Of a stretch of DNA of 64,000 bases, positions 6,382-22,897 are shown piece after piece. The position numbers and the translations under genes were made by a program. The notes beneath the pieces are model-generated. The model searched no databases and was not told where the DNA came from. It saw only the letters and a list, made by a program, of their open reading frames with translations. Origin of the DNA: Candidatus Harrisonbacteria bacterium (GTDB lineage: Bacteria; Patescibacteriota; Minisyncoccia; UBA6257; 1-14-0-10-44-23); contig JAHFLF010000001.1 of NCBI GenBank assembly GCA_023255625.1, positions 94,255 to 158,254 of the forward strand. The letters run 5' to 3'. Within the stretch, counting starts at the first letter, position 1; the number at the start of each line of letters is the position of its first letter.

Positions 6382-6447
6382 GCCGATTATTTCTAAATTT
6401 TTGAGCTTTGCGATAAAAATTTTGCTAAAGAATCGAGCACCCCGCCC

Positions 6448-6672
6448 CTACACACCAAGCCTCTTTCGCAGATTGCGCCAACCGCCGCCATACTGCTTCA
6501 AGGTCAGTTCTCGCTCACGCGCTAAATCTTGGGTCGCGTAAGCTTCGTAATACAACAGCTTCCATCCCTTATGCTGGTTACGCCCATGCTCAACGAGGCG
6601 GCGGCGCAAATCTGCTGTATAACCGATGTAGAAATTTTTTGGTGGTGAAGTGAGAATATATAGGTAAAACAT
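6448..6672 (-). CDS. small GIY-YIG nuclease
   Basis: YLYIL...YIGYTADLRRRLVEH...YYEAY...ARERE; flanked by 15-bp inverted repeats. Confidence 0.88.
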   Translation of the reverse strand: MFYLYILTSPPKNFYIGYTADLRRRLVEHGRNQHKGWKLLYYEAYATQDLARERELTLKQYGGGWRNLRKRLGV

Positions 6673-6755
6673 ATTGGTGTAGGGGCGGGGTAACTAGTTT
6701 GTGGTTGCTCGGATACTCGCAAACAAACTAAGTTATCCCCTGATTTCGTACTTAT

Positions 6756-7615: not shown

Positions 7616-7654
7616 AGCACACAACCACCCTTCCGGTGGTTGTGCTCGTTTTTA
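7616..7654 (+). terminator. intrinsic terminator
   Basis: GAGCACACAACCACC...GGTGGTTGTGCTC followed by GTTTTT. Confidence 0.7.
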
Positions 7655-8194
7655 CGAATTCTCAATCCAAAATCGCATTTTGCGCGGCGTACCCTCGCCG
7701 ACGTCAAGAACATTTTCAAGTTTACCACCGCAGGATTCAATAATTTTGCGTGACGGCTCATTTGTTTCGTCGCAGGTAAGCAGCACCCGCGTAATTCCAA
7801 GAGAACGAGCAATCGGAAGCGCCTGCTCTAAAAGTAATTTTCCATATCCTCTCCTGCGTGCCCATGGCACAACATCATAGCCAATGTGCCCGCCCGTGCT
7901 CGCTAATTTTTCACTCAGCACGTGGCGGATGCTTACCCGACCCGCATACTTACCGTCAACAATCAGCCAGCGAGTGGTTGCCGGAACATGCTCACCATCT
8001 TTCGTGCGCCACCCATTATCAAATCGGTCGTGAAGGTGTGTAGCAAAATCCCGCTCCACCTCTTCAAGGTTGACTTCTAGATACCGCCCTTCTTGCTGAA
8101 GCTCCCGAATACCAGCAATATAACTTTCCTTATACTGCTGCGATGGCGGAACCAGCTGAACTCCTTTTTCAAAATTTTCTAATGTTCCTGACAT
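7652..8194 (-). CDS. GNAT-family N-acetyltransferase
   Basis: GGHIGYDV, RRRGYG, LTCDETNEPSRKIIE; likely start at 8194 because the upstream extension is tRNA-like sequence. Confidence 0.88.
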   Translation of the reverse strand: MSGTLENFEKGVQLVPPSQQYKESYIAGIRELQQEGRYLEVNLEEVERDFATHLHDRFDNGWRTKDGEHVPATTRWLIVDGKYAGRVSIRHVLSEKLASTGGHIGYDVVPWARRRGYGKLLLEQALPIARSLGITRVLLTCDETNEPSRKIIESCGGKLENVLDVGEGTPRKMRFWIENS

Positions 8195-8196
8195 AG

Positions 8197-8425
8197 TGCG
8201 CGTTGCTGGGATCGGACCAGCGGCCTTTTCAACTTCGCCCCGTACCGTGATGGGCATACTTTGTGGGCACTACAGGGATTGAACCTGTGACCTTTCCAAT
8301 GTGAATGGAACGCTCTACCACTGAGCTAAGTGCCCATCTCTGGTACGGGGTGTGAACCCCAGTAGTAGAACCTACTGGTTCACTACGGGGCACGGTGAAA
8401 CGCTCTACCACTGAGCTAAAGACGC
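8197..8425 (-). pseudogene. split outer tRNA-Val-like gene enclosing the intact tRNA-Val
   Basis: 5' half GCGTCTTTAGCTCAGTGGTAGAGCGTTTCA (8425-8396); 3' half TGAAAAGGCCGCTGGTCCGATCCCAGCAACGCGCA (8231-8197). Confidence 0.65.
8264..8335 (-). tRNA. tRNA-Val(CAC), intact
   Basis: GGGCACTTAGCTCAGTGGTAGAGCG-TTCCA-TTCACAT-TGGAA...GGTTCAATCC...GTGCCCA. Confidence 0.95.
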
Positions 8426-8580
8426 CCTTCTTCGCTTGGTTTGGTAACCAAGCTTCGCAAGGGCAAGCAACAATGAATATCACTGCTTGTCCCTCCGGAG
8501 CTTGAGTGCCAACGAGAGCGTAGGGGGAAGCTAAAGACGCCCTACTTCGCTAAACCCTACTGAAGCTTCGCAGGGCAAGC
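8414..8580. repeat. cluster of three CTTCGC...GCTTCG REP-like hairpins with a duplicated tRNA 5' end
   Basis: AGCTAAAGACGCCC...CTTCGCT...AAGCTTCGCA..GGGCAAGC twice, with an inverted copy between. Confidence 0.7.
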
Positions 8581-8622
8581 GTAGAACGAGTATAAACAAA
8601 AGAAACCCTTTATTCAAGCAAA

Positions 8623-9663
8623 TCAAACATGCAAACTAAGTGCATTTTCTTCGTGCATTCTTTTTAAATCATCAATTGAAGTCGGCTTATCAATTCCCGG
8701 ATATTCAGCCGTATTATCTGATTCCCACAGGCGAATCGGCAATAACTGAACTCCCTCTTTGATGCTTTCCAGAGAAACTTCTGTTGCGTCCTCACCAAAT
8801 CGAATACCGTGGAGTTGATACATACCACCTTTCAAAATAATAGGCTTGTTATCTTGAACCGCCGATTCTAAAGCAATAAATGACCATTCCTGCCCAACTT
8901 TTTTCAGAGCGCCCAGCAAACGGCCTCCTGCATATAACAACACGCGGTTTTTCTCCTCCCCAGCTGCAATGACATGATAGGCTTCAGCATTTTCACAAGC
9001 GCAAAAATCATATGTGCGAATTCTTTTAGCGCTATCAAGCTCGTATGGCGCCGACAACAATTGAATTCCGGAAACGGGAATGGCATTATCTAAATCGTAG
9101 TGCCTGGCTATCTCAGGATCAATCCCTTTAAGATCAAAGCTGGAGATAATACCCATAGGATAATACTCAAGTAACATTTTTTGAATCTCTTGCCCCTCTT
9201 TTTCAGAAAAAAGATTGCCATACACTCCAAAATTACCGCCAATAAGTCGCCCCATTTCTCTCCGCTCACCATACCCCCGATACAACCCTGACATAATGGG
9301 ACCGGCTAAGCTATTCATAATACGGTTAGCGCTGGGATGATCTCTCCAATAATCAAAAGTGAGGGTTAGTACTGATAGAGCGAGGCCGAGATCTTGCCTA
9401 TCATAAACAAGTCCGAGAATCGCTGATTCAACAGATTCAAGAAATTTAGATACCCCCTCTTTTTCTTCCAACTGGTGCAAAGAAAATTTCTCCCAAGGCC
9501 CTACAAAATGGCTTTTCAAAAGGATTGCATCGAACGTAGCAATATCGGCAATGCCGAGCCGATGTAGCCTATCAACCAATTCCGGAGACTCTTCAACATT
9601 AATAAGTTGCTCCACCGCCTTCTTGCTTTCAACTGGTTTTTCAAAAGGATTATCGTGATCCAT
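8623..9663 (-). CDS. hypothetical protein
   Basis: 346-aa ORF. Confidence 0.65.
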   Translation of the reverse strand: MDHDNPFEKPVESKKAVEQLINVEESPELVDRLHRLGIADIATFDAILLKSHFVGPWEKFSLHQLEEKEGVSKFLESVESAILGLVYDRQDLGLALSVLTLTFDYWRDHPSANRIMNSLAGPIMSGLYRGYGERREMGRLIGGNFGVYGNLFSEKEGQEIQKMLLEYYPMGIISSFDLKGIDPEIARHYDLDNAIPVSGIQLLSAPYELDSAKRIRTYDFCACENAEAYHVIAAGEEKNRVLLYAGGRLLGALKKVGQEWSFIALESAVQDNKPIILKGGMYQLHGIRFGEDATEVSLESIKEGVQLLPIRLWESDNTAEYPGIDKPTSIDDLKRMHEENALSLHV

Positions 9664-9730: not shown

Positions 9731-10099
9731 TTATTTCAATTCCACCGTCGCTCCAGCAGCTTCGAGAGACTTCTTAAGAGTCTCGGCATCTGCCTTAGCC
9801 AGGCCAGTCTTAACTGACTTTGGAGCAGCATCAACAATGTCCTTGGCTTCTTTCAAGCCCAAGCCAGTTGCCTCACGGATAACCTTGATGACCTGAATCT
9901 TCTGCTCACCACCCTTGGTAATAACCACATCCCACGCAGTCTTCTCTTCTGCTTCGGCTGGACCAGCACCTGCGGCTGCCGGGCCGGCTGCCATTGCTGC
10001 TGAAACACCAAACTTCTCCTCCATTTTCTTCACGAGCTCTGCGAGCTCGGCAACGGTCAATTTCTCAACCGCGCTCATTATTGCGTCAAAATCTGCCAT
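9731..10099 (-). CDS. rplL: 50S ribosomal protein L7/L12
   Basis: [28 protein letters not shown]. Confidence 0.98.
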
Positions 10100-22847: not shown

Positions 22848-22881
22848 CCCCAGTACTAGAACCTGCTGGTTCAGTACGGGG
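22848..22881. repeat. CCCC...TACGGGG REP-like hairpin
   Basis: Near-identical to 8357-8390; related copy near 28104-28137. Confidence 0.8.
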
Positions 22882-22897
22882 CATGCTCAATACACAA

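Follow-up and report, generated by a model that had tools for sequence, protein, structure and literature searches.

Intact tRNA genes nested inside split genes of the same anticodon suggest a tiny mobile DNA cassette in ultra-small bacteria

tRNA genes are regarded as stable and vertically inherited. They are known to be interrupted by archaeal bulge-helix-bulge (BHB) introns, as split tRNAs and by bacterial group I introns, the canonical intron site in archaea and eukaryotes lying at position 37/38, and group I introns have reportedly been seen in tRNA-Asn and tRNA-Asp genes of Patescibacteria. Integrative elements that target tRNA genes restore them at attL/attR, rebuilding the gene from a fragment carried in attP. 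Short GC-rich hairpins also form the REP/REPIN families with their RAYT partners and the derivatives of IS200/IS605, which occur as several families per genome and leave no target duplication.

In the tRNA-dependent lysogeny of actinobacteriophages, a host tRNA gene is destroyed by the insertion, and a complete tRNA of matching isotype comes with the element, as set out in part of the article by Guerrero-Bustamante and Hatfull (2024, PMC10865867). SsnA of Neisseria, a GIY-YIG protein of 94 aa, cuts single-stranded DNA upstream of, and next to, its own hairpin (Chenal et al. 2025, PMC11893778). According to the main text of that paper, it acts on transforming DNA and lowers its integration, tolerates extensions of the hairpin loop and is inactive on RNA and double-stranded DNA, and the authors propose a mobile origin for Ssn nucleases with their NTS/SRM hairpins; the same main text reports no insertion of DNA and contains the words 'tRNA', 'cargo' and 'candidate' nowhere.

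The window, by which we mean the whole 64-kb stretch of DNA that was analysed, is part of contig C8 of assembly G000 (931,659 bases, 94.9% complete). Membership of the Patescibacteria is likely, judging by this small size and by the record titles of similar loci. On its minus strand at 8197-8425, an intact tRNA-Val(CAC) lies in the anticodon loop of a split tRNA-Val; this nested feature is real, and all of its parts were found as described in a sequence-only reading of the same DNA. The features of the locus and its surroundings are listed below, with G001 and G002 denoting genomes of the same genus.

8589..8617, minus strand: sigma-70-like promoter match (TTGAAT, 17 nt, TATACT; 9/12 matches), just upstream of the locus
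8426..8580, minus strand: upstream cluster of three GC-rich hairpins, including a stranded copy of the first 12 nt of the outer tRNA at 8540-8529
8425-8396, minus strand: 5' half of the outer gene, a native tRNA-Val(CAC), with the acceptor 5' strand, D arm and anticodon stem 5' strand; 29/30 identical to G001/G002
8395-8357, minus strand: empty 39-nt hairpin insert at tRNA position 31/32; DNA fold of -11.8 kcal/mol
8356-8351, minus strand: anticodon-loop remnant TTCACA read in the sequence, native positions 32-37, anticodon CAC
8350-8336, minus strand: left arm of a 118-nt cassette inserted at 37/38; base-paired to the right arm when folded as RNA or as DNA
8335-8264, minus strand: intact cargo tRNA-Val(CAC); called by ARAGORN and by Rfam RF00005 (72.8 bits)
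8263-8233, minus strand: right arm of the 118-nt cassette; contains a brief repeat of the cargo acceptor 3' strand, plus an unpaired 3' tag of 5 nt
8232-8197, minus strand: 3' half of the outer gene, with position 38, anticodon stem 3' strand, variable loop, T arm, acceptor 3' strand and discriminator A; 33/36 identical to G001/G002
7652..8194, minus strand: GNAT acetyltransferase gene (PF00583, E 1e-11), a neighbour outside the cassette
6440..6690, minus strand: 74-aa GIY-YIG gene (6672-6448; PF01541, E 2e-10) between the two arms of one GC-rich hairpin

The locus shares with integrative elements a tRNA gene as target and leftover fragments, and the upstream 12-nt duplication is similar, but here a whole second gene is carried, both halves of the first are stranded, and there is no integrase and no repeated common core. 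Compared with a MITE, which has terminal inverted repeats and a target-site duplication, its arms are inverted but offset by the 5-nt tag, and no duplication is present. Hairpin ends and the lack of a target duplication are also traits of REP and IS200/IS605 derivatives, whereas here Y1 was not found in the 94.9% complete assembly, the targets are tRNA loops and gene ends, and the cargo replaces the broken function. As in BHB and group I introns the anticodon loop is interrupted, here at 37/38; unlike them, the locus showed no BHB or ribozyme fold, the genome yielded no EndA or RtcB, and many nests elsewhere could not be rebuilt by excision. The disrupted isotype is supplied intact by the element, as in the lysogeny system; that system, in the part of the article cited (PMC10865867), involves an entire prophage, an integrase of the tyrosine type and about 10 bp of shared core, whereas the present one comprises 118 bp, no gene, inverted arms that clamp the tRNA and no duplicated core, and extends to many isoacceptors and to several layers. 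As in the Ssn system, small GIY-YIG genes of a single domain go together with hairpin repeats in a competent bacterium; in that system, going by the main text of PMC11893778, the genes have separate flanking hairpins, whereas here cargo is enclosed by the two arms of one hairpin. Such bounded genes account for 3/7 of the small GIY-YIG genes in G000 and 17/19 of those recovered from metagenomes by a scan for the arm family. The degenerate SRM consensus has 0 matches in 8101-8620 and 10 elsewhere in the genome, and because it is not matched here we do not file the locus as an Ssn/SRM member, though by analogy it may work like one. Nested same-anticodon tRNAs on hairpin cassettes were not found described in the literature searched, most subscription papers and supplements lying outside that search.

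ARAGORN and Rfam call only the inner tRNA at the locus as it stands. With both inserts (39 and 118 nt) taken out, the outer pieces join into a 72-nt tRNA-Val(CAC) scoring 111.3 in ARAGORN, above the default cut-off of 100, compared with 119.9 for the inner tRNA and 116.9 for the intact orthologue; the joining of the halves, offered earlier as a check, thus gave a tRNA. Removal of the 118-nt insert alone gave no ARAGORN call for the outer gene, and intron mode at a lowered threshold returned 173 mostly spurious calls with the outer gene not among them. As a control, joining the outer 5' part to random stretches of the window gave 2/3000 calls at the default threshold. The outer anticodon and T stems are each paired 5/5 and the outer acceptor 6/7, where one of the pairs is T-G and one position is a C-C mismatch, in agreement with the pairing first claimed. 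The remnant at 8356-8351 and the T at 8232 make up the full 7-nt anticodon loop of the outer gene, so that the junctions of the 118-nt cassette (6+1 nt, no repeat) show no target duplication. The locus folds far more strongly than shuffled versions (z -3.9), with the arms prolonging the inner acceptor stem, and beyond the cargo tRNA the 118-nt insert comprises only 46 nt and no gene. Contigs from two runs span the right junction: one from X3 (8092-8318, without differences; from the study that includes the possible source run) and one from X5 (8196-8330, four differences; a different study), the latter with the G001-type base at 8228. Among the matches listed, no contig piece spanned the left junction, and no public contig had a joint skipping either insert (contigs only, most from other organisms). 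The ATG of the GNAT gene lies 2 nt past the outer discriminator base, and a single transcript through cassette, tRNA and GNAT gene would start at the predicted promoter, which is weak by itself (three sigma-70-like sites found versus 1.1 expected).

Both G001 and G002 have a single intact tRNA-Val(CAC) adjoining rplL, as expected earlier of an outer-type ancestor in relatives, and the joined outer gene is identical to it at 68/72 positions. In the window rplL lies at 9731-10099, one ORF upstream of the tRNA locus, and this match to a syntenic gene makes the outer gene the native one. Relative to the genus gene, one base pair of the anticodon stem has changed with compensation and the acceptor 3' strand has changed at two positions; the latter changes result in the C-C mismatch, not present in the intact orthologue. 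An assignment of the outer gene to Val(GAC), to which its body is equally close (4/72 differences), was ruled out by the CAC loop remnant and the rplL synteny; Val(GAC) of G000 is found elsewhere, at C1:49841. The ORF between rplL and the tRNA locus (window 8623-9663, minus strand, 346 aa) has no Pfam or NCBIfam match, and the rplL-tRNA interval of G001 has no counterpart of it.

The inner tRNA differs from the outer at 16/72 positions, with paired stem changes, and from the genus orthologue at 19/72, so the earlier statement that this is not a simple duplication holds. Its best matches in 401 genomes of the class are 87-92% identical and belong to several other families; the cargo is likely of foreign origin, 72 bases being too few to name a donor. 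It is the sole intact Val(CAC) in the assembly, where GTG makes up about 25% of the valine codons in long ORFs.

Full nests were also found in G001, where Val-GAC is nested in a copy of itself, and in G012, G014 and G038, in stretches selected and read by hand among 41 genomes, which do not make a complete count. A strict pattern of two D arms closer than tandem genes allow, which sees the D-arm class of nests only and misses the window locus because of its extra 39-nt insert, was found in 11/401 genomes of the order, and its reversed control in 0. Over a named genome collection a pattern scan gave at least 120 loci, making 131 with the order genomes. The counts that follow hold among the matches listed. 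An intact inner tRNA is present in 117 of the 131 loci (113 unique), and a T-arm-like motif lies within 150 nt downstream in 64/113 and is absent in 49/113. Outer acceptor strands form 6-7 Watson-Crick pairs in 44/64, giving at least 44 strict nests, compared with a mean of 11.3 and a maximum of 22 in 2000 permutations within amino acid; these figures indicate that the halves belong together, not the number of events, because related genomes are not independent. The 20/64 candidates that fail the pairing test and the 49/113 loci lacking a 3' half within 150 nt count against the explanation we prefer below.

Ten isoacceptors, for Val, Ile, Thr, Met and Phe, are represented among the 44 strict nests. 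A same-anticodon bias is seen in the 26/44 with at least four loop bases matching the cargo loop (permuted mean 4.3, maximum 12), and inverted arms scoring at least 7 occur in 32/44 (shuffled 2/44). Stems are identical to the cargo in only 1/44, and most cargoes are unlike copies of a mature tRNA because an encoded CCA end is present in only 14/44. Nests with titled records (n=33) comprise 24 from Patescibacteria groups, two labelled 'bacterium' and seven labelled 'uncultured Gammaproteobacteria', the last being co-assembly records with unconfirmed taxonomic labels. Insertion follows loop base 6 (37/38, as here) in 4/9 other strict Val(CAC) nests and falls at 31/32 in 6/6 Phe nests; a few Ile(TAT) nests have possible 4-nt repeats, and in 8/64 candidates the cargo 5' end pairs with the downstream acceptor strand. 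Beyond these counts, near-identical cargo is found on different arm families (L041, L062), while a single arm family is inserted at Val, Thr and Phe genes and at gene ends. A second copy of the exact 118-nt cassette was not found in 401 genomes of the class, which also counts against our preferred explanation. The same kind of nesting is seen again in dozens of ultra-small bacteria and is likely the mark of a very small mobile cassette of DNA that disrupts a tRNA gene and supplies a replacement for it. Two further loci (L066, L080) have three or more D arms in series, as nests several layers deep. In G001 (L038, C8:1-291), a tRNA-Ile(TAT) has an intact tRNA-Val(TAC) on one side and, on the other, a hairpin-led duplicate of the 3' part of that valine gene, an apparent cassette with a tRNA of another kind.

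Hairpins of a similar kind interrupt D loops, T loops and also protein gene ends. The 39-nt hairpin has five further copies in G000 (86-97% over 36 nt), and the surroundings of two were read: those at C8:433476-433512 and window 22848-22883 (minus strand) are flanked by two synonymously different copies of the gene's last codons. Because these copies sit between duplicated last codons, the family appears to move with replacement gene ends as well. The cluster at 8426..8580 would be the footprint of an earlier D-arm (12/13) cassette; a cassette 75-77% similar to it is found at tRNA-Ile(GAT) (C1:57038-57368), with two tandem 114-nt hairpin units upstream that each close with the tRNA's first 12 nt, and similar layouts occur in G009 and G014. 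Inverted-repeat scores of at least 9 were obtained for 5/48 tRNAs of G000 versus 19/3000 random sites, including tRNA-Ser(GGA) with a score of 11 and inverted-repeat clamps at tRNA-Ser(TGA) (C1 67413) and tRNA-Ala(TGC) (C12 38492) with scores of 13 and 12.5.

G000 encodes seven small single-domain GIY-YIG (PF01541) ORFs and one more domain in a frame of 513 aa, their NCBIfam matches being weak and below cut-off. Three of the seven are enclosed by both arms of one hairpin, including the window gene, and 3/7 lie 45-132 nt from a tRNA, where about 5% would be expected per gene. The window unit at 6440-6690 lies in the leader of an mraZ-like gene; judged by its sequence it would be a nuclease carried as cargo, in the same layout as the tRNA cassette and with a different arm sequence, and is a candidate mover. 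At L174 (C8:311240-311775) the D loop of a split tRNA-Arg(TCT), with acceptor strands paired 7/7 (one T-G), holds both a GIY-YIG gene and an intact tRNA-Arg(TCT), bounded by direct copies of a double hairpin; this locus is a candidate autonomous form. At L175 (C8:459285-459785) a GIY-YIG gene and hairpins lie between a stranded copy of the first 23 nt of tRNA-Gly(CCC) and the intact gene.

A metagenome scan for the arm family of the locus followed by a GIY-YIG-type start, a pattern that cannot show other cargo of such arms, returned 31 stretches, 25 of them distinct, of which 19 are GIY-YIG genes; a complementary arm closes 17/19, versus 1/19 for the upstream control, so that GIY-YIG genes are cargo of arms near-identical to those of the locus. 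At position 6 of the arm all 19 carry C where the locus carries T, and the two exact matches to the T variant are not GIY-YIG genes, which counts against such a mover. In four loci (L180, L183, L201, L204) GIY-YIG frames pass through the right arm into the start of a prepilin-type protein with no stop. A GIY-YIG gene lies within 1 kb of 3/44 nests (among the matches listed), 0/34 plain valine loci and 1/150 random pieces, and because so few nests have one the enzyme would mostly act in trans. The cassette is likely moved by a small GIY-YIG nuclease. ComEC and DprA were found in G000.

With moderate confidence, we propose that the cassette split the native tRNA-Val(CAC), that its cargo likely took over, and that a GIY-YIG nuclease acting on single-stranded DNA, together with host recombination, is the likely mover. 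We consider it very probable that the outer gene is dead and that the event took place at the DNA level, and are similarly confident that the locus is a self-compensating cassette at that level. The following order of steps seems to us somewhat probable. Foreign DNA would enter as a single strand by way of ComEC and DprA, and the arms would fold cargo and ends into a single hairpin. The nuclease would then nick beside the hairpin foot and in the folded loop of the resident tRNA gene, and repair would join the nicked ends without a target duplication. The anticodons could match through homology between cargo and target, because only compensated insertions survive, or for both reasons. RNase P and 3' trimming, and not splicing, would free the inner tRNA from a long transcript; RNase P RNA was found in G000 (88.5 bits, below the family cut-off) and would in principle be enough to release that tRNA.

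At this locus a hairpin cassette would have come in at 12/13 while the native gene still worked, leaving a stranded copy of its first 12 bases at 8540-8529; the 118-nt cassette would then have entered at 37/38 with the substitute tRNA, and the empty hairpin at 31/32 would have arrived with it or later. Decay of the joined outer gene is slight (score 111) and its loop can be restored exactly, which counts against our preferred explanation; such little decay would reflect a recent event, or a shell kept since the GNAT gene starts 2 nt behind it. We suggest tentatively that these loci belong to an undescribed class of mobile element, consisting of one hairpin with interchangeable cargo, moved as single-stranded DNA by a GIY-YIG nuclease, aimed by the sequence of the cargo, and able to swap essential tRNA genes between Patescibacteria without loss of function. 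Its autonomous form would carry the nuclease as cargo and its non-autonomous form a whole tRNA or a gene end.

The same cassette could instead have spread by homologous recombination alone, an insert-bearing donor allele entering through the tRNA halves by natural transformation in a homing-like manner, with GIY-YIG genes as passengers or defence. ComEC and DprA would permit this, the repetition of insertion sites per isoacceptor (Val-CAC and Phe, among the matches listed) fits it, and the 8/64 candidates whose downstream acceptor pairs with the cargo may point to copies having exchanged sequence; at the present locus the 3' acceptor strand of the outer gene is itself a perfect complement of the Val(CAC) cargo acceptor at L041, so the shell may be chimeric. 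We consider this reading unlikely, since it leaves the first union of arms and cargo unexplained, does not account for near-identical cargo on different arm families or for one family at Val, Thr and Phe genes and gene ends, and sits poorly with outer halves that usually come from one gene, as pairing at 7/7 in 40/64 candidates (among the matches listed) indicates.

Less plausible is a non-autonomous element of REP/REPIN or IS200/IS605 type, mobilised by a Y1 (HUH) transposase that was provided in trans or has since disappeared, even though the absence of target duplication, the hairpin ends and the short conserved end tags fit Y1 elements. A likeness of such systems is also pointed out in the main text of PMC11893778. 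Y1 transposase (PF01797) was not found in the 94.9% complete genome by a search whose control matched 6/14 genomes, and the arms are found around GIY-YIG genes, in a metagenome pattern that was aimed at GIY-YIG starts and not at Y1. The sequence-only reading had held that REP-like hairpins hit the loop and that one of them carried a replacement isoacceptor; the nests and the ancestral gene support the hairpins and the replacement, whereas 'REP-like' describes their shape only, neither Y1 nor a RAYT transposase having been found in the genome and near-identical arms enclosing GIY-YIG genes.

A prophage or island that entered the anticodon loop with a complementing tRNA and was then deleted down to that tRNA would follow the logic described in part of PMC10865867, in which no rebuilding of the host tRNA takes place and its isotype comes from the element. 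We hold this to be very improbable: the junctions show no common-core duplication, the cassette has no integrase gene, and inverted arms clamp the cargo closely in 32/44 nests (among the matches listed), which deletion would not be expected to leave repeatedly and which are seen, in part, around empty loops and small nuclease genes.

The inserts could also be RNA introns, as suggested when the insert was said to be excised like an intron, with splicing yielding the outer tRNA and freeing the inner one. The large insert does occupy the canonical archaeal and eukaryal intron site at 37/38, and exact excision of both inserts gives a tRNA scoring 111. EndA (PF01974) and RtcB (PF01139) were, however, not found in the 94.9% complete assembly, the expected 4-bp central helix of a BHB pairs at 2/4 positions (judged by eye), and no Rfam intron family matched 7900-8800 at E up to 10. 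Splicing would require two separate excisions, and the 7-nt loop can be rebuilt in only 19/44 nests (among the matches listed). The presence of the same hairpins in D loops, T loops and protein gene ends, including the five other genome copies of the 39-nt hairpin, also counts against splicing, as does the outer C-C acceptor mismatch. G000 does have a tRNA with a likely intron: in its only tRNA-Asn(GTT) candidate (C8:519834-520266) a 358-nt intron is predicted to follow roughly position 35, presumably a group I intron of the sort reported for this group. Splicing at the present locus seems to us highly doubtful.

An assembly artefact or simple local duplication is hardly credible, given 16/72 inner-outer differences with paired stem changes, contigs of two studies bridging the right junction and the same layout in at least 44 loci, even though tRNA repeats are prone to misassembly and scaffold gaps or collapse occur at the related loci L042, L051 and L035.

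These loci show tRNA genes repeatedly broken and replaced in place by same-anticodon foreign copies, in genomes smaller than 1 Mb and by a cassette of about the size of a tRNA. Such cassettes account for split or intron-like tRNA calls in annotations of Patescibacteria. If a single-domain GIY-YIG nuclease is the mover, they would provide a small, cargo-aimed system of single-strand insertion that could be tested in vitro, and would give hairpin-nuclease pairs a mobile role so far only proposed, in the main text of the Ssn paper (PMC11893778). As a minor observation, protein genes begin 1-2 nt past the discriminator base of valine tRNA genes or stranded 3' halves at several loci (window 8194; L002, L014, L036), a spacing that suggests leaderless messages made by tRNA processing.
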